Part shown: in pieces, positions 18,480-63,184 of the stretch
How positions within the stretch are numbered: position 1 is the first letter of the stretch
Layout of the letters: every line of letters starts with the position of its first letter
Assembly (NCBI RefSeq): GCF_035084215.1
Contig: NC_090340.1
Coordinates: 4,588,001-4,652,000, forward strand
Source: Heptranchias perlo
Taxonomy: Eukaryota
DNA length: 64,000 nucleotides
Direction: 5' to 3'
Notes under the pieces: generated by a model
Told to the model about the DNA's origin: nothing
Seen by the model: only the letters and a program-made list of their open reading frames with translations
The model's database searches: none
Made by a program: the position numbers and the translations under genes

Positions 18480-18652
18480 ACCATGCAATAAACAGATGAC
18501 AAAAAGTTGACTTACGCTGCTCTAAATATGGTTGGGTCCGAAAGAAGAGGAATGCACAAACAGAAGGGAAATGTACCGAATATGCAGCAATCAGGTTACA
18601 GCGGCAAGAACGAGAGACACGGCCGGTCTACAGCGATCCAGTTGTCAAATGA
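18480..18652 (+). pseudogene. Terminal cytoplasmic exon of an inhibitory Ig-superfamily receptor with ITIM (LTYAAL) and ITSM (TEYAAI), disrupted
   Basis: Strong acceptor ttcctttacttttgcag|; reads TMQ*TDDKKLTYAALNMVGSERRGMHKQK, then 1-nt frameshift, then KCTEYAAIRLQRQERETRPVYSDPVVK*. Confidence 0.7.
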
Positions 18653-20179: not shown

Positions 20180-23100
20180 CCATCAGTAATGATGGCCATG
20201 AAACTACTGGATTGTCGTAAAAACCCATCTGGTTCACTAATGTCCTTTAGGGAAGGAAACCTGCCGTCCTTACCTGGTCTGGCCTATATGTGACTCCAGA
20301 CCCACAGCAATGTGGTTGATTCTTAATTGCCCTCTGAAATGGCCTAGCAAGCCACTCAGTTGTAAAATCTCGCTACGAAAAGTCACAATAAGAATAAAAC
20401 CGGACGGACCACTCGGCATCGGACCACTAGGCACCGGACACGACAACGGCAAAACACCAAGCCCAGTCGACCCTGCAAGGTCCTCCTTACTAACATCTGG
20501 GGACTTGTGCCAAAATTGGGAGAGCTGTCCCACAGTCTAGTCAAGCAACAGCCTGACCTAGCCATACTTACAGAATCATACCTTTCAGCCAACGTCCCAT
20601 ACTCTTCCATCACCATCCCTGGGTATGTCCTGTCCCACCGGCAGGACAGACCCACCAGAGGTGGCGGTACAGTGATATACAGTCAGGAGGGAGTGGCCCT
20701 GGGAGTCCTCAACATTGACTCTGGACCCCATGAAATCTCATGGCATCAGGTCAAACATGGGCAAGGAAACCTCCCGCTGATTACCACCTACCGTCCTCCC
20801 TCAGCTGATGAATCAGTCCTCCTCCATGTTGAACACCACTTGGAGGAAGCACTGAGAGTAGCAAGGGCACAAAATGTACTCTCGGTGGGGACTTCAATGT
20901 CCATCACCAAGAGTGGCTAGGCAGCACCACTACTGACCGAGCTGGCCGAGTCCTGAAGGACATAGCTGCTAGACTGGGCCTGCGGCAGGTGGTGAGCGAA
21001 CCAACACGAGGGAAAAACTTACTTGACCTCGTCCTCACCAATCTACCTGTCGCAAATGCATCTGTCCATGACAGTATTGGTAGGAGTGACCACCGCACAG
21101 TCCTCGTGGAGATGAAGTCCCGTCTTCGCACTGAGGACACCATCCAACGTGTTGTGTGGCACAACCACCGTGCTAAATGAGATAGATTCAGAACGGATCT
21201 AGCAGCTCAAAACTGGGCACCCATGAGGCGCTGTGGGCCATCAGCAGCAGCAGAATTGTATTCCAGCACAATCTGTAACCTCATGGCCCGGCATATTCCT
21301 CACTCTACCATTACCAACAAGCCAGGGGATCAACCCTGGTTCAATGAGGAGTGTAGAAGAGCATGCCAGGAGCAGCATCAGGCGTACCTAAAAATGAGGT
21401 GCCAACCTGGTGAAGCTACAACTCAGGACTACATGCATGCTGAACAGCGGAAGCAACATGCTATAGACAGAGCTAAGCGATTGCACAACCAACGGAGCAG
21501 ATCAAAGCTCTGCAGTCCTGCCACATCCAATCGTGAATGGTGGTGGACAATTAAACAACTAACGGGAGGAGGAGGCTCTGCAAACATCCCCATCCTCAAT
21601 GATGGCGGAGTCCAGCACGTGAGTGCAAAAGACAAGGCTGAAGCGTTTGCAACCATCATCAGCCAGAAGTACCGAGTGGATGATCCATCTCAGCCTCCTC
21701 CCGATATCCTCACCATCACAGAAGCCAGTCTTCAGCCAATTCGATTCACTCCACGTGATATCAAGAAACGGCTGAGTGCACTGGATACAGCAAAGGCTAT
21801 GGGCCCCGACAACATCCCGGCTGTAGTGCTGAAGACTTGTGCTCCAGAACTAGCTGCGCCTCTAGCCAAGCTGTTCCAGTACAGCTACAACACTGGCATC
21901 TACCCGACACTGTGGAAAATTGCCCAGGTATGTCCTGTCCACAAAAAGCAGGACAAATCCAATCCGGCCAACTACCGCCCCATCAGTCTACTCTCAATCA
22001 TCAGAAAAGTGATGGAAGGTGTCGTCGACAGTGCTATCAAGCGACAGTTACTCACCAATAACCTGCTCACCGATGCTCAGTTTGGGTTCCGCCAGGACCA
22101 CTCGGCTCCAGACCTCATTACAGCGTTGGTCCAAACATGGACAAAAGAGCTGAATTCCAGAGGTGAGGTGAGAGTGACTGCCTTTGACATCAAGGCAGCA
22201 TTTGACCGAGTGTGGCACCAAGGAGCCCGAGTAAAATTGAAGTCAATGGGAATCAGGGGAAAAACTCTCCAGTGGCTGGAGTCATACCTAGCACAAAGGA
22301 AGATGGTAGTGGTTGTTGGAGGCCAATCATCTCAGCCCCAGGACATTGCTGCAGGAGTTCCTCAGGGCAGTGTCCTAGGCCCAACCATCTTCAGCTGCTT
22401 CATCAATGACCTTCCCTCCATCATAAGGTCAGAAATGGGGATGTTCGCTGATGACTGCACAGTGTTCAGTTCCATTCGCAACCCCTCAAATAATGAAGCA
22501 GTCCGAGCCCGCATGCAGCAAGACCTGGACAACATCCAGGCTTGGGCTCACAAGTGGCAAGTAACATTCGCGCCAGATAAGTGCCAGGCAATGACCATCT
22601 CCAACAAGAGAGAGTCTAACCACCTCCCCTTGACATTCAATGGCATTACCATCGCCGAATCCCCCACCATCAACATCCTGGGGGTCACCATTGACCAGAA
22701 ACTTAACTGGACCAGCCATATAAATACTGTGGCTACTAGAGCAGGTCAGAGGCTGGGTGTTCTGCGGCGAATGACTCACCTCCTGACTCCCCAAAGCCTT
22801 TCCACCATCTACAAGGCCGCAAGTCAGGAGTGTGATGGAATACTCCCCACTTGCCTGGATGAGTGCAGCTCCAACAACACTCAAGAAGCTCGACACCATC
22901 CAAGATAAAGCAGCCCGCTTGATTGGCACCCCATCCACCACCCTGAACATTCACTCCCTTCACCACCGGCGCACCGTGGCTGCAGTGTGCACTATCCACA
23001 GGATGCACTGCAGCAACTCGCCAAGGCTTCTCCGACAGCACCTCCCAAACCCGCGACCTCTACCACCTCGAAGGACAGGAGCAGCAGGCACGTGGGAACA

Positions 23101-23345
23101 ACACCACCTGCACGTTCCCCTCCAAGTCACACACCATCCCGACTTGGAAATATATCGCCGTTCCTTCATCGTCGCTGGGTCAAAATCCTGGAACTCCCTT
23201 CCTAACAGCACTGTGGGAGAACCGTCACCACACGGACTGCAGCGGTTCAAGAACGCGGCTCACCACCACCTTCTCAAGGGCAATTTGGGATGGGCAATAA
23301 ATGCTGGCCTCGCCAGCGACGCCCACATCCCGTGAACGAATAAAA
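20180..23345 (+). mobile_element. Young near full-length single-ORF APE-RT LINE (CR1-group-like) with SINE-core 5'UTR
   Basis: APE motifs TNIWGL, ILTESYL, DR..RGGG, EPTRG.NLLDLVLTN, SDH; RT motifs QFGFR, FDIKAAFDRVWH, GVPQGSVLGP, FADD; A-rich tail; few lesions. Confidence 0.95.
20366..23287 (+). pseudogene. LINE endonuclease-reverse transcriptase ORF (~970 codons; frameshifts ~20884, ~22817, ~23098; stop at 21178)
   Basis: Track ORFs 20507-20920, 20989-21180, 21223-22908 and 22832-23335 join into one APE-RT frame. Confidence 0.9.
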
Positions 23346-33162: not shown

Positions 33163-35432
33163 ACAGCAGCTGGGAATTTAAATTCAAATAATTAGATAAA
33201 ACCTGGAATAAAAATCTAATATCAGTAATGGTGGCTATGGAACTATCGGATTGTCGTAAAAAACATCTGGTTCACTAATGTCCCTTTAGGGAAGGAAACC
33301 GTCCTTACCTCGGTCCGGCCTATATGTGACTCCAGACCCACGGTAATGATTCTTAGTCGCCCTCTGAAATGGCCTAACAAGCAATTCAGTTGTACAATCT
33401 CGCCACAGAAAATCACAAAAAGAATTAACACCAGATGGACCACCCAGTATCAAACTGGGCACCTGACACGACAAAGGCAAATCAAGCCCAGTCAACACTA
33501 CAAAGTCCTCCTCACGAGCATCTGAGGAATTGTGCCAAAATTGGGAGAGCTGTCCCACAGAGTAGTCAAGCAGCAGCTTGGCAATGTCTTACTCACGGAA
33601 ATATTCCTCTCAGCCAATGTCCCAGACTCTTACATCATCATCCCTGGGTATGTCCTGTCCCACCAGCAGGACAGACCACACGTGGCGGTACAGTGCTATA
33701 GAGTGAGGAGGCAGTGGCACTGGGAGTCCTCAACATTGACTCCCGACCCCATGAAATCTCATGGCAATAGGTCAAACATAGTCAAGGAAATCTCCTGCTG
33801 ATTGCCACTTACCCCCGTCCCTCAGCTGACGAATCAGTCATCCTCCATGTTGAGAAGCACTGAGGTTAGCAAGGGCACAGAATATACTCTGGGTGGGGGA
33901 CTTCAATGTCCATCACCAAGAGTGGCTCGATAGCATCACTACTGACCGAGCTGGCACAAGTGCTGAAGGACACAGCTGCAATACTGGGCCTGTGGCAGGT
34001 GGTGAGTGAACAAACAAGAGGGAAAAGCCTACTTGAGCTCGTCCTCATCAATCTACCTGTGGCAGATGGATCTGCCCATGAGAGTATTGGCAGGAGCGAC
34101 CACCACAATGTCCTCGTGGAGAGAAGTCCCGTCTTGACACTGAGGATACTGTCCATTGTATTTTGTGACACTACCACCGTGCTAAATGGGATAGATTCAG
34201 ACCAGAGTTAGCAGCTCAAATCTGGGCATCCATGAGGCGCTGTGGGCTGCCACCAGCCGCATAATTGTATTCCAGCACAATCTGTAACCTCATGGTCTGG
34301 CATATTCCATTACCAACAGGTCAGATTATCAACCCTGGTTCAATGAGGAGTGTAGAAGAGCATGCCAGGAGTAGCACCAGGCGAACCTATAAATGAGGTG
34401 CCAACCTGGTGAAGCTACATCACGGGACTACATGCATGCTTAGCAGCGGAAGCAACATGCTTTAGACAGAGCTAAGCGATTCCACAAACAACAGGTCAGA
34501 TCAAAGCTCTGGAGTCCTGCCAAATCCATTTGTGAATGGTGGTGGACAATTAAACAACTAACTGGAGGATGAGGCTCTGTGAACATGCACATCCTCAATC
34601 ATGGCAGAGTCAAGCACGTGGGTGCAGAAGACAAGGCTGGAGCGTTTTCAACAATCTTCAGTCAGAAGTGCCGAATGGATGATCCATTACGGCCTCCACC
34701 CGATATCCCCATCATCACAGAAGCAAATTTCGATTCACTCCACTTGATGTCTAGAGATGGCTGAGTGCATTGGATACAACAAAGGCTATGGGTCCCGACA
34801 ACATCCCGGCTGCAATGCTGAAGACTTGTGCTCCAGAACTAGCCGCGCCTCTAGCCAAACTGTTCCAGTAGAGCTACAACATCGGCATGTAACAGACAAT
34901 GTTGAAAATTGCCCAGATATATCTGCCCACAAAAAGGAGGACAAATCTAATCTGGCCAATTACCACCCCATCAGTCTACACTCCATCATCAGCAAAGTGA
35001 TGGAACGTGTCGTCGACAGTGCTATCAAGCGGCACTAAATGAGCAATAACTGCTCACTCATGCTCAGTTTGCATTCCGCCAGGACCACTCGCCTCCAGAC
35101 CACATGGTCCAAACATGGACAAAAGAGCTCAATTCCAGAGGTGAGTTGATAGTGACTGCCCTTGACATCAAGGCAGCATTTGATCGAGTGTGGCACCAAG
35201 GAGTCCTAGGAAAAGTGAAGTCAATGGGAATCAGGGGGGAAACTCTCCATTGGCTGGAGTCATACCTAGCACAAAGGAAGATGGTAGTGGTTGTTTGAGG
35301 TCATTCATCTCAGCCACAGGATATTGCTGTACGGTTTGTTCAAGGCAGTGTCCTTGGCCCAACCATCTTCTGATGCTTCATCAATCACGTTCCCTCCATC
35401 AGCAGGTCAGAAATCTGGACGGTCGCTGACGA

Positions 35433-37345
35433 TAAGGAGAGAGAAATTCGAGTACGAGAGAAAGCTAGCTAGAAATATAAAAACAGATAGTAAGAGTTTC
35501 TACAGGTATTCAAAAAGGAAAAGGTTAAGTAAAGTGAGCGTTGGTCCTCTGGAGAATGAGTCTGGGGAAGTAATAATGGAGAATAAGGAAATGACGGTTG
35601 AATTGAATGAATATTTTGTGTCCGTCTTCAATGCAGAGGTTACAAATAACATGCCAGAAGTAATTGTGAATCAAGAGTTCAAAGGGAGGGAGGAACTTAA
35701 AACATTTACAATCACCAGGGAAAGTGTTTTGAAAAAAATATTCGTACTAGAAGCTGACAAGTCCCCAAGTCCTGACGGACTTCATCCTCGGTTCTTAAAA
35801 GAACTGGCTGCAGAGAAAATAGATGCATTGGGATGAATTTTCCAAAATTCCTTAGATTCTGGAAGGGCCCCTTCAGATTGGAAAGTAGCGAATGCAACGC
35901 CTCTGTTCAAGAAAGGAGGGAGACATAAAAGCCGGAAACGACAGGCCAATTAGCTTGACATCTGTCATTGGGGAAATGCTAGAATATATTATTAAGGAGA
36001 TAATAAAGGGCACTTAGAAAATGTCAACGCATTCAGGCAGAGTCAACACGGCTTTGTGAAAGGAAAATCGTGTTTGACTAATTTATTAGAGTTCTTTGAG
36101 GAAGTAACATGCAATGTGGAAAAATGGGATCCTGTGGATGTGGTGTATTTGGATTTCCAGAGGATTTTGACAAGGTACCACATCAAAGGTTACTACACAA
36201 AATAAGTGCTCAAGCTGTAGGGGGTAACATATTAGCATGGATAAAGGATTGGTTTGCTAACAGAAAACAGAGAGTAGGCAGAAATGTGTAACTTTCAGTT
36301 TGGCAAAATGAAACGAATGGTGTGCCACAGGGATGAGTGCATGGGCCTCAACGATTTACAACCTATATCAATGACTTGGATGTAGGGATCGAATGTATGG
36401 TTGCTAAATTTGCTGATGACACAAAAATAGGTAGGAACGTGAGGTGCGAAGAGGACATAAGGAATCTGCAAAGGGATATAGATAGGTTAATGAGTGGGCA
36501 AAAATTTGGCAGATGGAGTCTAATGTGGGAAAATGAGAACTTGTCCACTTTGGCAGGAGGAATAGAATAGCAATATGTTATTTAAATGGAGAGAGATTGC
36601 AGAACTCTGAGGTACAGAGGCAACTGGGTGTCCACATACAAGTATCACAAAAAGTTAGTATGCAGGTACAGCAAGTGATTAGGAAGGCAAGTGAAATGTC
36701 ATTTACTGCAAGGGGAATGGAATATAAAACTAGAGATGTTTTTCTACAGTTGTACAGGGCATTGGTGAGACCACATCTAGAATACTGAGTGCAGTTTTGA
36801 TCTCCTTATTTAAGAAAGGACATAAATGCTTTGGAGGCGGTTCAGAGAAGGTTCACTCGACTGATTCCTGGGATGAGGGGGTATCCTACAAGGACAGGTT
36901 GGGCAGGTTGGGCCTGTATAAACTGGAGTATAGAAGAATGGGAGGTGATCTTATTGAAAAATATAAGATCCTGAGAGGACTAGAAGGGGTAGATGCTGAG
37001 GGGGTGTTTCCCCTTGTGGGAGAGACTAGAACTAGGGGCCACAGTCTAAAAATAAGGGGTCTCCCATTTAAGACGGAGTTAGGAGATGTTTTACTCTCAG
37101 AGTGTCCTGAGTCTGTGGAACTCCCTTCCCCAGAGAGTGATGGAGGCAAGGTCATTGAATATTCTTAAGGCTGCGTTAGATAGATTCCTGATTAACAAGG
37201 GAGTCAACGGTTATAGTAGGTAGACTGGAAAGTAGGGCTGAGTCACAATTAGATCAGCCATGATCTTATTAAAAGGCAGAGTTGGTTCGATGAGCCAAAG
37301 GGCCTACTCCTGCTCTTAATTCGTATGTTCGTACGTTCGTATGTT
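35433..37345 (+). mobile_element. 5'-truncated CR1 nested in the LINE RT domain
   Basis: ERKLARNIKTDSKSFY, KSPSPDGLHPR, FADDTKIG, RTRGHSLK; (ttcgtatg)-type tail. Confidence 0.9.
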
Positions 37346-38759
37346 CATTCCCATTCGCAACCCTTCAGATGACGAAGCAGTCCATGCCAGCATGCAGCAA
37401 GACCTGGATAACATCCATGCTTGGCTGATAAGTGACAAGTAACATTCGCGCCAGGCAAGTGCCAGGCAATGACCACCTCCAACACGAGAGAGTATAACCA
37501 CATTTACTTTACATTCAACGGCATTACCATCACCGAATCCCCCACCAGCAGCATCTTGGGGATGGCCATTGACCAGAAACTTAACTGGACCAATCACATA
37601 ATACTGCGGCTACAAAGCCTGGGTATTCTGCGGCGATTGACTCACCTCCTGACTCCCCAAAGCCATTCCACCCCATCTGCAAGGCACAAGTCAGGAGTGT
37701 GTGAATGACTCTCCACTTGCCTGAATGAGGGCAGCGCCAACAACATTCAAGAAGCTCGACAACATCCAGGACAAAACAGCCCACTTGATTGGTACCCCAT
37801 TCACCACCCTAAACATGAGCTATTTTCACCACCGGCGCACCATGGCTGCAGTGTTTACCATCCACAGGATGTATTGCAGCAACTCGCCAAGGCTTCTTTG
37901 ACAGCACATCTCAAACCCGCGACGTCTACCATCTAGAAGGACAAGGGCAGCAGGCACATGGACACAACACCACCTGCACGTTCCCCTTCAAGTCACACAC
38001 CATCCCGACTTGGAAATATATTGCCGTTCCTTCATCGTCGCTGGGTCAATATCCTGGAACTCCCTTCCCAACAGCACTGTGGGAGAACCGTCACCACACG
38101 GACTGCAGCGATTCAAGAAGGCAGCTCACCACCACCTTCTCAAAGGCAATTAGGGATGGGCAATAAATGCAGGCCTTGCCAGCGACGCCCACATCCTATG
38201 ACGAATAACAAAAATAGCCCTACTGTGATTTCAATTAACTTGAATTTCCCTGCGTAACAGAAAAAGATAATTTTTTAAAATAACTACAATATGAAAATAA
38301 AACAGTAGGAGAATAACATCAGCAGATTCCAGGACAGTCGGAAGATCTCTGCTGATCTCTGCTGATCTCTGCTCCACTGGAAGCTGCTGCAAGTGGGAGA
38401 TGGAAAAGGCACGGGGCCCTCTGCTGGGCATCTTGTATCATAACAGGACAAGCAATTGTATGTCTCCTTAGCCAATCAGATTGAAGGATTTTGAAATGAA
38501 CAGCGCAGAGGCTGAACTTGGATGTGCAAGGAAGATTAACGAATTCAATGTCAAATCATGTACGGAAAGCGAAGGAAAGAAAGATTGGATTACGAGAGAC
38601 AGAAAGAAAAATAAGTGGGGCAAAGGAAGCGCATGAGAAAATATTAGTGGGTAACAAAAAAGAACACTGAAAGGAACAATGAAGTATTTCAGATATATAT
38701 ATATAAAGTGTAAAATAGCAGTCAAAGGAACGTACGGCTCATTCGAGACCAAATAGGAC

Positions 38760-48900: not shown

Positions 48901-50330
48901 ATGCACCTCTGCTGGATAATTTATTCAGGGAGGACGACTGCAAAACCCATAAATGGCACCCCCTATTGTGAAATGAGGAACCATCGAAGTAGACATCTGT
49001 AACATCCTCCAACGAAGTTTTCTGAACTGGGTTATTAACGAAGTCCATTAGCGGTAGTGGACATTCATGCGATTCTCCCTGGTATTGTATCACCTCTAGT
49101 GGAAGAGTTGCTTGTTTTGGCGTAATGCCAAAATGTCATTCCATCAACAACAACATCCAAAAGCTCAAACGAGCAGATGATAACAACGTATCTCCCGGTT
49201 TCATCAAAAGGTTAAGTGGAGTGTGCGGGGAGTGGAGCACCAAAGTTTGCAATCCTGTGATGTACTTAAAGTATTTCGCAGTCCAAAAGGTGGCCAACAA
49301 ATGACTTTGTCCTCCATGAACGCATCCAATCCTGTCACTTTCCGCGATGCATCGGCAGTAGATAAGAGCTTATCTTGGACAACTTGACAGAGGACTGCCA
49401 CCATAATCTGGCCGGTGCTCCAACTTCCACATGGAAAGGCACCTATGGATCTGGAGTGATCAGACCCGTTGGTTGTATGACCGCCTTCTTTAGCTGTCGA
49501 ACCGCTTTGGTGTGCTGTGAGATCCATCTGGACAGCACAGCGCCTTCCTTTCCTTTAAATAACTCATACAATGGTTCCGCAAGAACTGCAAAACGTGGTA
49601 AAACAGCAATCTGGTATCCCAACAACCCGAACAATGAACGGAGCGCAGTTTTAGACACCGGCAATGATAATCGCTGTATATTTTTTACTTTGTGCTGATC
49701 TGCATTTTATCCAGCAGCAGAGATGGACACGCTCAGAAATGTCACTTTTTCCTGTAGCAGTTGAAACTTTCGAGGGTTAAGTTTTAATCTCACCCCTTTT
49801 AACATTTCGAACAGTTCTTCCAACAATTGGAGATGTTGCTTCTTTGGTTTTGTAGCTAGCGTCAAATCATCTAGTAGGCTTAGAGGAACTATGATGGACT
49901 TTCTCATTCGCTTGTGGAGGATCGTTGAAGCGTTATGAAATCCCTGGGGCAGACAAGTCAACGTACAACTCTGATTTTCTAAGGTAAAAGCGCATTTACA
50001 CTGATCTTTTCTCATGAGTATACCCCAGAATCCATTTGCTATGTTTGTGGTCGAAAACCATTTGGCTCTGGGTGGAATTAGAGATAACAACGTTGGTGTT
50101 TCCTTTACGACCGGTGGGCAAGCGGGAGTGACTGAATTTGACTTTCGATCATTAATAACCATCAACCACGGTCTGTTATATTAACGGGCCAAATAGGAGA
50201 ACTTGTAGTCAGCGTGCCGACTCCAACAATACCCTACCAGACTAACGCCCGAACTGTGGCCTCCACATATGGATGTTTTGCCTTGTGAATTGGATAAAGT
50301 TTTGCGAATAGATGCTGAGGTCTATTCACT
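45960..50330 (-). pseudogene. pol: ERV pol: RT (~49700-50330), connection, RNase H (split by CR1), integrase (~45960-46960)
   Basis: SSPIWPV, KWFSTTNIANGFW, LPQGFHNASTILH, LLDDL, LRSLFGLLGY, VYFDGSS, KVKAH..GN..AN.ASKEAA, WKHLRIDFIGP, PQSSGEAERTNRTLK. Confidence 0.88.
47505..48860 (+). mobile_element. Internally deleted CR1 inserted in the ERV RNase H
   Basis: IEFFDEVTKRVDEGNAVD.VY.DFQKAFDKVPH; (ttctatga) tail. Confidence 0.88.
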
Positions 50331-50499
50331 AACGATTTTCCTTCCATTCGTCACAATCATATGTTCTGCGGGCAAACGCGATTGCCCATTTTTGAAGCAT
50401 ATTTTGTACCTCCAGTTCCTGATGGACCAGAAATTCGCACACCTGCTCTTTCTTAATCGCGAACACTGAATGCATACCTGAAAGCTCTACAACCGACTT

Positions 50500-50872
50500 C
50501 CTATCATGCCAACCATAGACATTGTTTGGAATAGTCAATAATGACACCGCATTGATCTGAACATCAGTTCCCAATAAACCTCGCCCGTCGTTAGTTCGCA
50601 TTGATACCGCAGTATGCAGTTCAAACTCCGCACCATGTGAAGATATCTGAGACAAGCTCAACTGATAAGCCTACTCTGACAATCCATTAAAATCCTGCAG
50701 CCGCAGCATCGTGTTCGGGAAATGGAGTACGAATGATGGTTACCGGTGACCCGATGTTTATTAACATCATTTGTCGTTCGGCCCCACCAATAACAACAGA
50801 GACTGCAGGTCTAGTATGGGCATCACGTCGGAACTCCACTACCGACTTTGTAGAGGGGCCGACTCCCTTCAT
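50500..50872 (-). pseudogene. pro: ERV aspartic protease (degenerate)
   Basis: V.IGG..RQMMLINIGSPVTII (decayed LIDTGS) and GLLGTD motif. Confidence 0.65.
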
Positions 50873-52600
50873 TGCTGGCCCGGATTTTGTCCTTCAGCCT
50901 CAGCTGAAGGAGTGGAAGCTGTATCAATTGACGCCACTTGTTCACGTTGGCCCATAATGTTGCTGGTTGTCAGTAATTTATTCAATTTATCCTTGGTCCC
51001 TTGTCTCCAGTTTTCCGGAGTACCGACATGGGGGAAGGGCTGGGCAGCAGTTCCTTCCCTGTATACAACCTCTGGCAAAATGTCCCATTTTGCCACAATT
51101 ATAGCATTGTGGTCCTCTATTTCCTGATCATGACCTTTTATTTGGTCCCAGTTATTCCTATACTTCTGAGGTCCCTCGTCCACTGACATTGGTTTTCCCG
51201 CAGTTCTCGAATGTTGCTGCCCTCCCTTTGGTCTGGTGATGTGTCTTTTTACATCACCCCAGGCCTCAATGGTGAGTCTCAAAATTTCGTCCCACCTATC
51301 ATTTTTACAGATAGATACTCCCAGTGCAGTTTCCATTAACGGCTGCAAATGACTTATAAACGTTTGTTTCAAGAACTTATAGTTTCGCCGATAAGGCATC
51401 ACTTGGTTTGGTTGTACAATTGCGAGCTGACGTGGCACAATGGGTGTGTCATCTCATACACATCAAGCAATCGACTGTTGAACGCGATCGCTTGCTCTGT
51501 AGGTCCCTGTACCGCTAGTGCACAAATGTGCATCAGATTTAAGGTGTTTACTCCCAATAAATCCAATATTCCTCCAAGCAGCACATCGGACCTATTTACT
51601 GCATAAGCGGCAGGGTAATACATGGTTGTAAGCCCTCACCCAGGGCGGCAAATAAAATAGTTTTTAAATCACCGTCTTCCAGCTCTCCATGACCCCGTTT
51701 AAAATCTCCCCAAGCTCGAGTGAGCACAGTAGGGTCATTTCCGTTAATGGGCCCTAATTATGTCGCCAAAGTAGCTGCTTCATCCAGTTTCTTGGGTTTA
51801 CTCTCATTGTGTCTTGATGTAATCGCACCTTATTGATCACGGCTCACACTGGTGATGATCACATTTACGGGCTGGCTTTCCCAGGCATCGGTGTCGGTAT
51901 TATTATTATATGCTGTTTCTCATTCTAACGGTTGCCAATATACTCCATCCCCTCCTCCGCCCGCCTTGTTAGCTGACACCAGGGTTGTTTGTTGTTCCAA
52001 TTCTCCCTGTAGCTCATATATTTTTAACTCGAACTTGGTGTAATCTGCCTCGCGAGCAGGCCTATTCACCATTTTTCTAAGGGCTCCTAGCGCGTCTTTT
52101 CGTTGTGGGCTCAAAACATTGTTCTCTTGCAGGAATTCATTAATCTTCTACTTCACCTGCTGCGCTACTAACCCCTGGGCGGCTGCCTGAGCAGCTCCAG
52201 CCTGTATTTGTGACAGAATACATGTCAGATCCCTATTCCATTCTCCAGTTCCTCACACTGTTTCTTCCCTTGTTTTAACTGTTTTACACTCTTGGTCTTT
52301 CTTTTCCACCAATTCCACCTGCGGTTGTTCCCTTTCTTCCTGTTCTTTGTTTGTCTTTGCGAAGATTTGCTCTCTTCTGCGTGCAAAGAAATGGGCTGCA
52401 TGGACTAACAGTTGTCTGCCTATTTTTATTTTATTTTCATTCGTCTCCTCCTGAGTCCATTGCACGGTGCATTCAAATGTTCCGCCGTCTCCTGCCGTTG
52501 CAAAGACCTTCTCTAACTGGTTCTGTAAGATCATTTCGGTCTCGGTTAACTCTGCCACAGTGAGTAAATAGATTACCGGTAGGAGGTACAATCCCCTACA
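50869..52600 (-). pseudogene. gag: ERV gag-like region
   Basis: Broken ORFs with coiled-coil character between PBS and protease (52253-52591, 51920-52114, 50869-51438); assigned by position. Confidence 0.55.
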
Positions 52601-52682
52601 CTCCCTAAAGTTCCTTTCCTGAACTCAATAGGTCGATCCTAGGACCTTCCTTTTGCTCAATTGATCATCAACTATTTGTCAG

Positions 52683-57630: not shown

Positions 57631-58355
57631 TAGTTTATTCAGTGCTCGGGAGATCCAAACGACCTTATAGACCAAGCCTCAATTCTTAGCGGGCTGATTC
57701 TCCAAGTGTAGGGAATCTCACACTGGAAAAGCTTGTCTCCAGCTATCTCTCGATTAAATTCGGAAATTGACTGACGAGCTGTGTTTCCACTTTAGCCATA
57801 ACCTGAGGTAACTGTAGCTGCAGAGTTCATAACAAAAGACCTAATTCCAATGGTACAGAGACCGCTCACAAATTTGTCATAGTAGCCCGAAGATAAATTT
57901 GAAACTCTACACATTTATTACATTTACATTCAATTACCTCCTCTACCACAATCTATTCGTGCCATCAGGTCAGGTCATTTTGACGCTATACAAAAATCGA
58001 TGGGACATCCTTCTGTCCAAAGTTTTATTTGATACACGAATGAACCCGATTGATGGAACCATGAGTACTCAAGCGATCCTCTTCAGGTCAACTATGCAAA
58101 CATTAAAGAGATTCTTCAGAATCAAAAATAGTAATGACTTGCAATATTCGTCCATCGTGGCGGGCAAAAAGACGATGAATTATGGACTTATGAGCTCATG
58201 TATAATATTAATAAACTCCCCCTACATTTGCTGCAACTACAGCTTCTTATTTTCTGTTACCCTTTTTGGTCACAGCTGCACCCACAAATCTTACTCTAAA
58301 GGGCACGTTTTTCTCCACTTTAAGCCACTGCGCAATTAAACAGTCATGTGACATC

Positions 58356-58363
58356 TGACGTCA
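58356..58363. promoter_or_regulatory. CRE palindrome TGACGTCA, promoter of the duplicate
   Basis: Perfect CRE starting 115 bp upstream of leader ATG 58471; conserved in both duplicate copies. Confidence 0.55.
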
Positions 58364-58470
58364 CAGATAATTATTAAATTATATTAAGTACACAGCCGCC
58401 CATTCTCCGAAACTTCATCCATTCGGTTCTCATTCACAAGGGGTGTTATACTGTACATTCAGTGCACGAT

Positions 58471-59063
58471 ATGTCTATGAGGTTGTCTCTTTGGAGCATT
58501 TGTTCCTTGGGAATTTTCATTCCAGGTGGACTTTTATTTTTGTTGTGATCAATCAATTTTTCCCGAACAAGAAACAACACATGAAGTCGATCGGGAATTG
58601 TTTTGTGCTGGTTTAATTTGATATAATTGTTATCCTGTCCCTTGCCAGAGGGAAGCATCTAGTTGAGAAAGTCATGTTACTTATGATCATTCAACGAGGA
58701 AACCATATCAACAGATGGATAATAATTCTCAGGGTTAGGTACAATGAATTACTAATGTATCAATAGATTGGATGGACGATCTTATTTTAGCGGTTCAGAT
58801 CATCTTCCCTGGATATGAATTATTTAACCTTGTAGCTTCGTTTGTTGATAGTTGCTGTGCACACTTCAGGCAAATTGATTCCGGATATTGTACAAAATAA
58901 GGCGCGAAGAGGTACGAACATTACCTTGAAATGTCCTGTTCCCTTCGATCTCAATCATTCATACTTAAAGGTTCACTGGTGGAGAGAGGGCAACGGTACC
59001 TTTCTACAAAAAGAGAATAGAAAACAGTTTCAAGTAAAGAAAGGCTGCGCCTATCTACAGTAA
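58471..59063 (+). pseudogene. Truncated tandem duplicate of the receptor: leader exon 58471-58525 and partial V exon 58852-~59056
   Basis: MSMRLSLWSICSLGIFIP|gt..gatag|VAVHTSGKLIPDIVQNKARRGTNITLKCPVPFDLNHSYLKVHWWREGN..KKGCAYLQ*; cut before the F-strand Cys. Confidence 0.85.
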
Positions 59064-59072
59064 TTTGGAATT

Positions 59073-59080
59073 TGACGTCA
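59073..59080. promoter_or_regulatory. CRE palindrome TGACGTCA, promoter of the intact receptor gene
   Basis: Perfect CRE starting 115 bp upstream of ATG 59188, followed by an AT-rich TATA-like stretch. Confidence 0.55.
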
Positions 59081-59187
59081 CAGATAATTATGAAATTATA
59101 TTAGATACACAGCCGGCCATACTCCAAATCTTCACCCATTCGGTTCTCAGTCACAAAGGAAGATATACTGTACTTTCAATGCACGAA

Positions 59188-59242
59188 ATGTCTATGAATG
59201 TGTCACTTTGGAGCATTTGTTCCTTGGGCATTTTGTATCCAG
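59188..59242 (+). CDS. VJ-C1 Ig-superfamily receptor (SIRP-like), exon 1: leader MSMNVSLWSICSLGILYP
   Basis: Hydrophobic leader ending phase 1 at cag|gtagac; ATG and donor conserved in the duplicate at 58471-58525. Confidence 0.7.
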
Positions 59243-59587
59243 GTAGACTTTTATTTTTGTTGTTATCAATCAATCTTTCCTGAAAAAGAAACAGCGCATG
59301 AAGTCGGTATTATATTTGAGGTACAATTGGATATTGGTTTATGCTGGTTTAATTTGAAGTAATTTTATCATGTCCCTTGCCAAAGGGAAACATCAAGTTG
59401 AGAAAGGTGATGTTATTTATGGTCATTCAATGAGGAAACAATTTCAACAGATGGAGAATAATTCTTAGAGTCAGGTACATTCAATTATTAATGTATCAAT
59501 GGATTGGATGGAAAATCTTATTTTGGTGCTTCAGATCATCTTCCCTGCATATGAATTATTTAATCGTGTGGCTTCTTTTGTTGACAG

Positions 59588-59899
59588 TTACTGTGGACAC
59601 TTCAGGCAAATTGGATCCGGATATTGTACAAAAGAAGGCGCTAAGAGGTTCGAACATAACCTTGAAATGTCCTTTTCCCTTCGATCTCAATCATTCAAAC
59701 ATAAAGGTTCAATGGTGGAGAGAGGGCAACGCTACCTTGCTGCAAGAAGACAGCAGAAAACAGTTCCAAATAAAGAAAGGCCGCGCCTATCTTGATCTCC
59801 AGAATGTGACTGTCCTGGACAACGGGACGTATCGTTGTGCAATTAAATATCAGAAGGAAAGTTTTGGAAAAGGAACTCGTGTTCAAGTTGTTGTATATG
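59588..59899 (+). CDS. VJ-C1 receptor exon 2: V-type Ig domain with germline-joined J motif
   Basis: ttcttttgttgacag| acceptor; NITLKC, VQWW, AYLDLQNV, DNGTYRC, FGKGTRVQV; tatg|gtaagt phase 1. Confidence 0.9.
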
Positions 59900-60766
59900 G
59901 TAAGTATGAGTGGAGCTGGAAACGTGAAGAGTTTAGTTGCTGTCGATGCTCAAAATGCGTTTGACATGGAATTCCAATAAGGAAATGCACTGTGTATAAA
60001 AGAGTACAGCTTTCTACTTGTTCATAACGACACGCGTTCAACTATATGGAAACTTTCCCTCTTCCAGAGTCTCTGCAAAATGTGACAAATGACCTATATC
60101 TTCAATTGTTACTTAATGTTATGTTCATCAAGGAAAGTATAATCAAGGCCGGGAACAAAAATGCTTCTTTCCAATTTTAGCACTAAGTATCCCTATGAAA
60201 CACTTCGTGGTTATTTGCAATATCATAGATCTTTAAAGGGCCAGTGGACAGAAGAGTTTCGAAGAGGAAGATCCCCATCCCCTCATTTCGACGGCGCACT
60301 TCCCGCTTCTGCGATCCAGATAAAATTCCTGAATCGATGGAACAGAGGAGACACACACGATAAATCAGGTGTCGGAGTCCAGACCGAGGTTTAAACTGGA
60401 TCCTTTCCGTACAAAGGAAGGAAATGATCTCGATGTAACAACTGAACGCGTTCTGTACTATTTCAACTGTTTACGCGCAGCATGGCCATTCGTACACCAT
60501 AATATTAATAAAAAGAGGTCCAACTTCGCAAATAAATGTTGTTGAATTCAACAGGGATACATCGGTACTGCTGGGGAGGAAATTGGGTAATAATACCTGT
60601 AGATACAGTGAAAAAAAATAGGTTGATTTCCATTCATGATAAATAATTATTACAGATACAACTACAATGCCCCATCACAAGCATTTGTTAATTAATGAAA
60701 ACAGAGTGTAGATAAGATTACAGGCCAAATATTTTGCTTTATCTCTTTTTGTTCTTTACCATTCAG

Positions 60767-61072
60767 CTGTTCCCGCTCCGCTGAAGATTGTCACCATAAC
60801 ATCCGAAGGGGCTTCTTCCGCTTTTCTGCGACTCGAGTGCAGAACGGCTGCTTTTTACCCGAAGGACTTCAACCTCATCTGGCAAAAAAATGGTACCGAA
60901 ATCGTGACTGGAGTTGGAACTGAACAACAGGCAAACACAGAGGGACTGTATGAAGTTATTTGCTCCATAGAAGAGACACGGCCAATCGAGCGCGGCACAA
61001 TTTACACCTGTCAAGTATATCACGTTTCAAACTCAATTCCAGCAAGTGCCAGCTACACCGTTGGAAACGATG
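60767..61072 (+). CDS. VJ-C1 receptor exon 3: C1-set Ig domain
   Basis: Long pyrimidine tract..attcag|; LECRTAAFYPKDFNLIWQKNG, NTEGLYEV, YTCQVYH; gatg|gtaata phase 1. Confidence 0.9.
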
Positions 61073-62881
61073 GTAATATTATTGCACACGTGGTACTTGT
61101 ATTGATTTCTGTGTTTCTTCGCGCAGTAATTGAGCTTCCATCGCAGATAGTGGGTAAATACAAGAAAATGCGGGAAGTGTTTACTGCAGTTGTTTGCATA
61201 TCATTCTTTCACATCCGAAGTCTGGGTTTACTCCATCTCCCATCAATCGGGTGAAGATTCCCTTTCTGTTGGTTATTGGGATATGGTGAGAAATAATTTG
61301 GACACAAGCAACAGAGCCAATAGTGAACACCAGTCCTCAGCATAGTTTCCATAATTCATGCTAACTGTCAAATAATATTGCAAGTTCACTGAGAGGGCAC
61401 GGTGACGGGTGATGCCGGAAAAGGAACCATGCGTCATTGGGATTGGAATAGTTAGTGAGGGTTGACGGCGTGGACTGGGGGAATTGATTTCTTTCACGTT
61501 CCCGCAACCATGTCGCAATCCAAGGTCATTCCGCGCATCATCAGATTCACAGTGCGGAGCCGTCGACAATGCACCAAGAATACTTAGGTTGCTCTTGTGG
61601 AAAGATGGAAAAAGATTTCGTGAGCATTTGCTCCGAATGGCAATTCTAGCGCATTTGTAAATACGTCCCATTGTCTTTAAGAGTTCGCCCTAAATAAGCA
61701 ATTGTTATTTAATGTTATGTTTATCAAGGAAAGCGGTATGAAGGGAACGTGGCAGTGGAAGGGTGAATAGATCGGAGTTGGTCGAGCAGCAAGTGGGTGG
61801 GTGAAGCATGAATAATTGCGGAGAGAATGGGAAAGCAGCCACTTAAGGCAAGTGTTTCCCTGCAACATTACCTAAAATATAGGCTGCAGCCATTAGTTAG
61901 TCATTTCTCTTTCACATCACACTGTGCCAATCGTCACCTACCGTTCGCGCAATAATGCAGAGAAGATAGCAAAAGAGGTTAGAAAGAGAAACAAAGAGAA
62001 CTTAGGTGCAGGTAGCAAAAGAGGAAAGAGAACGATTCAGAAATAAAAGAGGGGAGAAAGAGAGAGAAACAACAATGACAAGAGAACTGACAGGGAGAAG
62101 GGAGAGACGACGACCTTGAAATGACATGGCGTACAAGTGATCTAGCGTCAGAATTCGGATGCGAGCCCAGCGAAAACCCCAAGAAACTAACACGCCTGGA
62201 CATGCAAACCCTAGAATGATCGCCTAGAATTCTCCGGCTGGATATCGGCGAATGCAGCGGAGAATCATCATAAGCGTTAGGAAGGAGATCAGTGGAACTA
62301 GCGTAAATTCGTCCCTAATTGTAGACGTTCAGCAGAAAAGTCGTATTGACGGCTGATCTAAGATAGGGCAACGTCAACCCACGGCAGGAGACACAGCTGG
62401 AATGTTAGTCGGTGAAGGCTCTGCCAGGAAATGCAAGACTTTTACGGTTTTACAATCACGAAACACGACGTCCAACATCAGTATTCGCAAATTTAAGATT
62501 TAACGAACGTGTGTCACGAAGTATACACGGATCTCTCCTCGCTCAAGTACGTAAAGATGTCTCATGCTCATTGTTTCTAGCAACATTTAAAATCATTTCT
62601 TTTAGAATGTATTTATATTATTGCGAGAAAAAACGAACAGAGAAAATCTTCACCAAAGCATTGACAATATCACGCACACGGCCAGCAATGGAATCCTTAT
62701 TCCAGTGGATTGTATAATTGCAAATGATTTTCTGTGGTTTTGTTATATAAAAAAAAGAAAGATAATGGGACAAGCATGAAGTGGATAATGTTTGATTACG
62801 TGGCATAGTCAGAAATATCATCAGATTGACATGGTTTCTGGTTTTGAGTGCTTATCATTGACCAATTTATATCTTTTCCAG

Positions 62882-62994
62882 ACGATCATTCTGTCCTACC
62901 CATCCACCTGATTTATCGATCTACAGTGGCGTTATTGGTCATTATTCTACTGACGATAATCATCCTCAACCATGTTACATCAGATAACTTTTAA
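62882..62994 (+). CDS. VJ-C1 receptor exon 4: transmembrane segment with Arg and a short tail, ending in a stop
   Basis: tcttttccag|; DDHSVLPIHLIYRSTVALLVIILLTIIILNHVTSDNF*; TAA at 62992-62994 lies 2 nt before an AAG|GTAAGA donor. Confidence 0.75.
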
Positions 62995-63184
62995 AGGTAA
63001 GAGATTATTCAATCTTAAACAACATTATTCAATTTATAACATGGAAGAAATATGTGACATTTCGTAATCAATTGTAGAGATTTCTACTCAATAAATACAA
63101 AATAATGAAATGCCTGAAACCATGAAAACCAACAGGAAGTCCTATCAGGGCCGCTGTTTAATGTTGGCTTTAGAAAATAAGTTA

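Follow-up and report, generated by a model that had tools for sequence, protein, structure and literature searches.

What kind of receptor is encoded by a non-rearranging gene whose V exon appears to end like that of a joined antigen-receptor chain? This question is raised by a four-exon gene in a 64,000-nucleotide stretch of Heptranchias perlo DNA (NC_090340.1, positions 4,588,001 to 4,652,000 of the forward strand; hereafter the window). Among living animals, cartilaginous fish are the oldest to possess immunoglobulins (Igs), TCRs (T-cell receptors), and an MHC (major histocompatibility complex), and a first-pass annotation of the window had described the gene as built like a rearranged antigen-receptor chain. 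Our analysis instead places the gene in a family of V-C1 proteins of sharks, rays, and chimaeras, apparently uncharacterised, of which it is apparently an ordinary member. [quoted passage not shown] A role as a direct relic of an antibody or T-cell receptor chain is likely the poorer account.

The four exons lie on the forward strand (Table 1; the last one is coding over 62882–62994), show GT donors with AG acceptors, join one another in phase 1, and yield an open frame of 261 aa closed by TAA, as the first-pass annotation had read them. The exon model and Pfam together give the layout leader-V-C1-TM, with 41.4 bits for the V-set and 37.1 bits for the C1-set domain, and the latter score bears out the true C1-set domain claimed earlier. 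The V exon, described as ending in FGKGTRVQV with neither an intron nor a recombination signal sequence (RSS), indeed ends in ...FGKGTRVQVVVY without an intron between the V and J parts, and a loose scan that returned 12 RSS-like heptamer/nonamer pairs in the whole window found none in 58300–63100. Two features had escaped the annotation: the TM arginine R237, followed by an 8-aa tail, and a splice donor at 62997, past the stop. A fifth, untranslated exon downstream of the TM exon is likely, because this donor follows the stop and the contig of a relative runs on past 62997 into other sequence.

The gene is real, since two Heptranchias proteins of 261 aa each align to its product end to end without gaps at 69% identity and contigs of relatives are spliced at its junctions; proteins of Scyliorhinus and Heterodontus are approximately 60% identical. 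Three contigs, all of a single run guessed to be RNA and 86–96% alike to the locus, connect C1 sequence with the TM exon. In two of them the 1.8-kb intron is absent, with the join at the predicted C1/TM junction, and the third departs from within the C1 exon; at the loose 5′ end of one contig, 22 of 25 bases agree with the end of the V exon. These contigs are transcripts of relatives and back the exon model, not the expression of this copy. Among the junctions predicted earlier, that between C1 and TM is therefore seen in relatives, the V end is matched at the 22 bases mentioned, and that between leader and V stayed uncovered: the three sequencing runs examined gave no coverage of the leader and V exons, and no RNA run among the matches listed matched 59100–61100. 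One contig, 96% alike, joins the middle of the C1 exon (60927–60932) to the TM exon (62879–62882), which fits a GC donor at 60931 and would be out of frame. Residue 188, in the C1 exon, is a private Cys in this gene as against Ser in all 16 aligned relatives; it is probably buried and thus left unpaired.

The range of the family was obtained from several searches. A profile search returned 17 proteins, whose named organisms are sharks or rays, with one entry lacking an organism that we take to be Callorhinchus; a C1-bearing Callorhinchus entry came from another search. An index-free search returned 56 clusters at E < 1e-30, a few of them multi-domain outsiders. The family accordingly comprises more than 50 sequence clusters, and all members carrying organism names are from sharks, rays, or chimaeras, although their automatic names conflict (SIRPA-like, SIRPB1-like, NCR3LG1-like, MHC class II beta-like, and uncharacterised). 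On V and C1 profiles made from 57 family members, with this gene left out, it scores 114 and 137 bits, against 30 and 59 bits for the best outsiders. The models P0014, P0023, and P0026 contain duplicated V-C1 or C1 units, which may reflect either the fusion of adjacent genes or genuine multi-domain members.

Three of the outsiders were labelled against the PDB (SIRP-like, UrIg2, and B7H6-like) and the other outgroup rows by eye from motifs, and the trees took in no TCR, NKp30, tapasin, or PRARP sequences. Within this set, the family is monophyletic for C1 (45 rows, Shimodaira–Hasegawa-like approximate likelihood ratio test 100; 16 rows, 100/100) as well as for V (43 rows, 89/87), with short end branches for this gene (0.10 in C1, 0.19 in V). 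Its C1 domains are not nested among the IgH/IgL/UrIg2-like rows, no TCR rows being in the set. In these sequence comparisons the family is separate from the SIRP-like, B7H6-like, UrIg2, and IgH sequences. Approximately unbiased (AU) tests on C1 rejected no partner (SIRP, p 0.38; Ig/UrIg2, p 0.43; B7H6, p 0.41) and are unable to pick a sister group. The separate V and C1 phylogenies proposed as a check gave the family its own clade in each tree, outside the labelled outgroup rows. The earlier suggestion of a non-rearranging cartilaginous-fish family, SIRP-like or uncharacterised, with V and C1 domains agrees with the profile and family searches. In the accessible parts of the literature, including supplements of PMC3964593 (where the file searched may not be the main supplement) and PMC10751288, we found neither the family nor four member identifiers described, and subscription papers may cover the family.

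Paired receptors are defined by similar ectodomains on members bearing an ITIM (immunoreceptor tyrosine-based inhibitory motif) and on members with a charged TM segment and a short tail (PMC3533184, accessible part). TM and tail types were assigned to 74 relatives by a crude rule, 18 of them without a called TM (partial models or splice forms); the 56 relatives with a TM comprise 12 with Arg only, 24 with ITIM only, three with both, and 17 with neither. In a tree of V plus C1 (43 rows, 32 labelled) the type switches 10 times, compared with a mean of 9.9 in shuffled labels, and well-supported branches force at least seven type changes. The Arg and ITIM types are interleaved over the ectodomain tree, which is the signature of paired receptors. 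Of the three rows nearest to this gene, two are of the Arg type and one is of the ITIM type, ITIM-tailed relatives have ectodomains 59–65% identical to its own, and the colinear 261-aa relatives retain the TM Arg. Heterodontus P0006 has the same V-C1 without the TM Arg and carries four LTYAAL motifs, and tails in the family read LTYAAL...TEYA. Similar ectodomains are therefore found across both types, and this gene supplies an activating-type member with R237 and a short tail. As regards possible clustering, three family loci lie in the window and several members within a species share one longest contig. A TM pattern R-x16-(D/E/N)H is common to this gene and 11 relatives; a single one of these relatives is of the ITIM type, and there the pattern is likely due to chance. 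Furthermore, a subgroup with neither TM Arg nor ITIM (P0049, P0051, P0055, and P0116), of which P0049 and P0051 have a Cys-rich juxtamembrane segment and a basic tail, is possibly a third signalling type.

In LILRA and DCAR, a TM Arg pairs with FcR-gamma (PMC3533184, accessible part), and from this pairing together with the paired-type pattern we infer an activating receptor that uses an adaptor of the FcR-gamma/CD3-zeta type. In the proposed mechanism, the V domain would bind a cell-surface ligand, which inhibitory siblings would read as a self ligand while recruiting SHP-1/2, whereas Arg-type siblings, this gene included, would counter pathogen decoys or altered self. R237 is predicted to dock the ITAM adaptor and so to deliver an activating signal. 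Ectodomains were likely swapped between the signalling types by duplication, conversion, and deletion in a tandem cluster.

Several points weigh against such an activating receptor. No transcript of the exact gene was seen, the spliced contigs coming from the 86–96% alike relatives and from runs only guessed to be RNA. The rule left 17 of the 56 relatives unclassified, with some Arg-bearing ray proteins misbinned as neither. The ectodomains of P0026 and P0074 are near-identical but their TMs differ, so that the two might come from one gene by alternative splicing instead of being paired genes; alternative TM exons within a single gene are possible for some near-identical pairs. Furthermore, the DNA beyond about −130 has been replaced by a truncated paralog, so that expression of the intact gene may be altered.

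The likeness to a rearranged chain, on which the first-pass annotation relied, is not supported by the V domain and the promoter: FGKG is out of register, the V is short, and the count of cyclic AMP response elements (CREs) is within chance. Of the 63 relatives in the alignment, 59 have Gly at column 114 and 56 have it at column 116; at column 113, 41 have Asn and none has Phe or Trp, and F-G-x-G at columns 111–114 is seen in three. A deep profile aligned the family sequence NGTGSxLxV to FGTGTKVTV of Ig lambda and to SGAGTELSV of SIRP-alpha, and the last residue of the V model was aligned to lambda 106A (Kabat numbering; the end of the range in a fold alignment). A four-sequence profile placed one kappa chain in the other register, and the register is therefore based on the deep profile together with the structural range, from which the J-homologous residues of this gene are K113-G114-T115-R116. 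The second Gly of the family G-x-G is here replaced by R116 (codon CGT), FGKG lies two residues upstream of the J-homologous G-x-G, and the antigen-receptor look is partly coincidence. A J-like G strand is present at the level of the family; this gene lacks the (F/W)GxG J motif in the homologous register.

The spacing of the two V cysteines is 56 residues here and 54–60 in 66 of the 74 relatives in which both are aligned, compared with 64–75 in SIRP-, B7H6-, UrIg2-, and IgH-like V rows, so that this V is 8–19 residues shorter. An AlphaFold model from a 64-row alignment (predicted local distance difference test, pLDDT, 87.5) contains strands A′, B, C, D, E, F, and G and a single bridge at C′, and neither a C″ strand nor an ordered A strand was found in it; the single-sequence model was poor (pLDDT 55) and was not used. 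The spacing and the model argue against a full V-set domain with C′ and C″ strands, which was rejected. VNAR also lacks C′ and C″ strands. A fold search with the V model ended in a tie at Z 12–12.8 among I-set domains of titin and NCAM, VNARs, lambda chains, TCR alpha, and B7-type V domains, with SIRP and NKp30 absent among the best 50 matches; because the matches are tied, the search names no relative. The V is a compact, VNAR- or I-set-like domain, to which fold alone cannot assign a relative. The joined-VJ class of the immunoglobulin superfamily (IgSF) lists CD79, NITR, SIRP, CD8, NKp30, and PRARP (PMC11599192, accessible part), and the V-C1 family belongs to this known class.

As regards the promoter, the perfect CRE reported upstream of the leader is present (Table 1). 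The window contains two copies against 0.75 expected, and at least two occur in 16 of 100 shuffles; since both copies are one site within duplicated DNA, the count is not above chance, although the site itself is real. A motif scan did not find the decamer AGTGA(C/T)(A/G)TCA, and neither an octamer nor TATAAA was present near the gene. The proximal promoter retained amounts to 126 bp.

Other origins have to be weighed against an activating member of a paired family. The gene could belong to a divergent shark SIRP expansion that lost one C1, shortened its V, exchanged Lys for Arg, and acts via a CD47-like self marker. Antibodies aside, the four-sequence profile matches SIRP-alpha best in the PDB (55.6 bits), the G strand and linker align well to SIRP-alpha, several members are automatically named SIRPA- or SIRPB1-like, the language-model (ESM) clusters nearest to an inhibitory member are SIRP-alpha-like (0.96), the AU test does not reject the union, and the LTYAAL...TEYA tails, which resemble those of SIRP-alpha, were counted on the same side. 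Such an expansion is nevertheless somewhat unlikely, as the family V and C1 (89/87 and 100/100) each form one clade outside the SIRP-like clade, a true SIRP-like protein with 182 bits to SIRP-alpha scores 30 bits for V and 55 bits for C1 on the family profiles, far from the scores of this gene, and the SIRP-like V spacing is 64–66. Nesting within the SIRP clade was accordingly rejected, whereas a sister relation was not. A decidedly unlikely origin is a surviving germline VJ-C1 lineage near the rearranging Ig/TCR precursor (UrIg/PRARP-like), in which the gene would be an invariant antigen-receptor-like chain. The absence of Phe and Trp from the J-Phe column of the 63 relatives, the missing second Gly of this gene, the short V without C″, the separate clades of UrIg2-like sequences in both trees, and a signalling design of paired receptors speak against it, despite the single-exon V, the family J-like G strand (NGTGSxLxV to FGxGTxLxV), the true C1, the split leader, the PDB matches of the deep profile, whose best include Ig light chains and UrIg2, the AU test that does not reject the family with Ig/UrIg2, and a fold-search tie between I-set domains on one side and VNAR and a lambda chain on the other. 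That the gene is an Ig light chain or TCR chain joined in the germline, as the FGKGTRVQV end of the V exon and the leader-V-C1 layout would suggest, has practically no probability left: the TM exon is of the family type, the V is short, the motif is out of register, the C1 lies outside the Ig clade, RSS relics are missing, and the family trees refute it, given the outgroups in the set.

The state of the locus and the function of the product give rise to two further alternatives. The gene may be a decaying copy in a birth-and-death cluster, silent or weakly expressed since a deletion took its distal promoter; against an intact frame, intact splice sites throughout, a length equal to that of its relatives, short end branches, and the retained proximal promoter, there are a truncated V exon approximately 17 bp upstream of the CRE, two neighbouring family relics that are both broken, and private changes at conserved columns (R116 and C188), and decay is judged improbable. 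Very improbable is a B7-H6/NCR3LG1-like ligand instead of a receptor. The V plus C1 layout, two relatives automatically named NCR3LG1-like, a weak B7-H6 match (44.9 bits), and the C1 AU test that does not reject the union are in its favour, whereas the B7H6-like V forms a separate clade (99/99) that excludes the family, has a spacing of 68–75 and no GxG, and scores at most 30 bits on the family V profile, and the ITIM and Arg signalling types indicate receptors.

As an activating receptor, the gene may work like SIRP-beta, LILRA, or NKp30-type receptors. SIRP-alpha/beta, like the family, combine a J-like V with C1 and have ITIM-tailed and short-tailed charged-TM members, and the J-like G strand aligned as SGAGTELSV is common to SIRP and the family, though this gene lacks the second Gly. 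The full-length alpha/beta/gamma form of SIRP has a V and two C1 domains, whereas one C1 precedes the TM exon here. The TM residue of SIRP-beta is Lys. The family Arg lies near the outer end of the TM, and SIRP-beta uses DAP12 (PMC3533184, accessible part). LILRA and DCAR resemble this gene in combining a TM Arg and a short tail with FcR-gamma pairing (same source). NKp30 (NCR3) shares a VJ domain with this gene, which has an extra C1 besides its TM Arg; it was absent among the sequence and fold matches listed, and kinship is still possible. NKp30 carries a TM Arg, is MHC-linked, and is not known to have a C1. The clusters of teleost NITR and mammalian KIR, LILR, and PIR are likewise multigene, mix activating and inhibitory members, and contain broken copies, a likeness that is offered as a functional analogy, since their ectodomains (V-I in NITR) differ from V-C1. 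PRARP genes were reportedly described by Fu et al. in 2019 as non-rearranging VJ or V-C1 genes of chicken. PRARP V-C1 proteins have tails with ITIMs or immunoreceptor tyrosine-based switch motifs, constitute a small gene set of bony vertebrates, and have a canonical J. Like the family, PRARP is a non-rearranging VJ member of the IgSF (PMC11599192, accessible part). UrIg and UrIg2 of elasmobranchs have a single-exon VJ, a split leader, and C1 domains, three in the secreted UrIg and at least nine in UrIg2 (PMC12227049, accessible part). UrIg2-like V domains have a spacing of 74–75, compared with 56 here; membership in UrIg/UrIg2 was rejected, this gene having one C1 instead of at least three and its V not grouping with UrIg.

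To our knowledge, no large activating/inhibitory receptor family has been established for innate cells of cartilaginous fish, and this family, with its dozens of diverged V-C1 members spread over both signalling types, is a concrete candidate for one, for which a ligand (MHC class I, CD47, or pathogen proteins) and a cell type can now be sought. The family also offers one more germline VJ-C1 lineage for reconstructing the origin of antigen receptors, and it illustrates how a motif that looks like FGxG in a single gene can have arisen late and by coincidence. A bolder proposal, rather doubtful at present, would be that these undescribed, chondrichthyan-wide germline VJ-C1 paired receptors are the missing shark counterpart of KIR/NITR-type natural killer or myeloid receptors that recognise self MHC class I and, at the same time, an independent VJ-C1 lineage split from the Ig/TCR precursor before RAG insertion.

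Table 1. Features of the receptor gene and of neighbouring family relics (window coordinates).
Feature	Position	Strand	Remarks
CRE palindrome TGACGTCA	59073..59080	+	115 bp 5′ of ATG; also kept in upstream paralog
Leader exon	59188..59242	+	18 codons + 1 base, phase 1; relatives P0007 and P0008 begin at same column
V-type Ig exon	59588..59899	+	Cys46-Cys102 spacing 56; no C″ strand in model; G114 but R116
C1-set Ig exon	60767..61072	+	Pfam C1-set
TM exon	62882..62996	+	Arg237 near outer helix end, 8-aa tail, stop 62992-62994, donor 62997
Truncated paralog	58340..59063	+	CRE 58356-58363, leader 58471-58525, V exon from 58852, cut ~59056, stop 59061-59063
Broken terminal cytoplasmic exon, inhibitory-type member	18480..18652	+	LTYAAL, then TEYAAI in another frame; profile E 3e-6

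Two family relics that were missed by the first-pass annotation accompany the gene. The truncated paralog (58340–59056) is 84% identical, has an intact promoter, contains a CRE, a leader, intact splice sites, and the 5′ two thirds of a V exon, and ends where the proximal promoter of the intact gene starts. Since its frame is open despite 11–17% divergence, a deletion between two tandem paralogs fits better than old decay of a local duplicate, and an assembly error may also have produced the junction. The dN/dS ratio between the two V copies is approximately 1.2, a weak value from only 67 codons, too few for a test. The paralog could yield a short leader-V transcript that runs to the in-frame stop, or its leader could be spliced onto the intact V exon. 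The second relic is an ITIM or immunoreceptor tyrosine-based switch motif-type tail exon with an early in-frame stop and one frameshift, 40 kb upstream of the gene on the same strand; no V, C1, or TM exons belonging to it were found in the window, and neither tblastn nor the family profiles returned further V or C1 exons there. The rest of the window consists mostly of repeats and reverse-transcriptase-like fragments, as identified by eye. These include a reverse-transcriptase-like open reading frame (575 aa) at 21181–23335 of a young long interspersed nuclear element, with a second copy, 87–90% identical, at about 34300–38000, many older CR1-like fragments elsewhere, and, at 49707–52624 on the reverse strand, broken fragments resembling gag/pol of a long terminal repeat retroelement.

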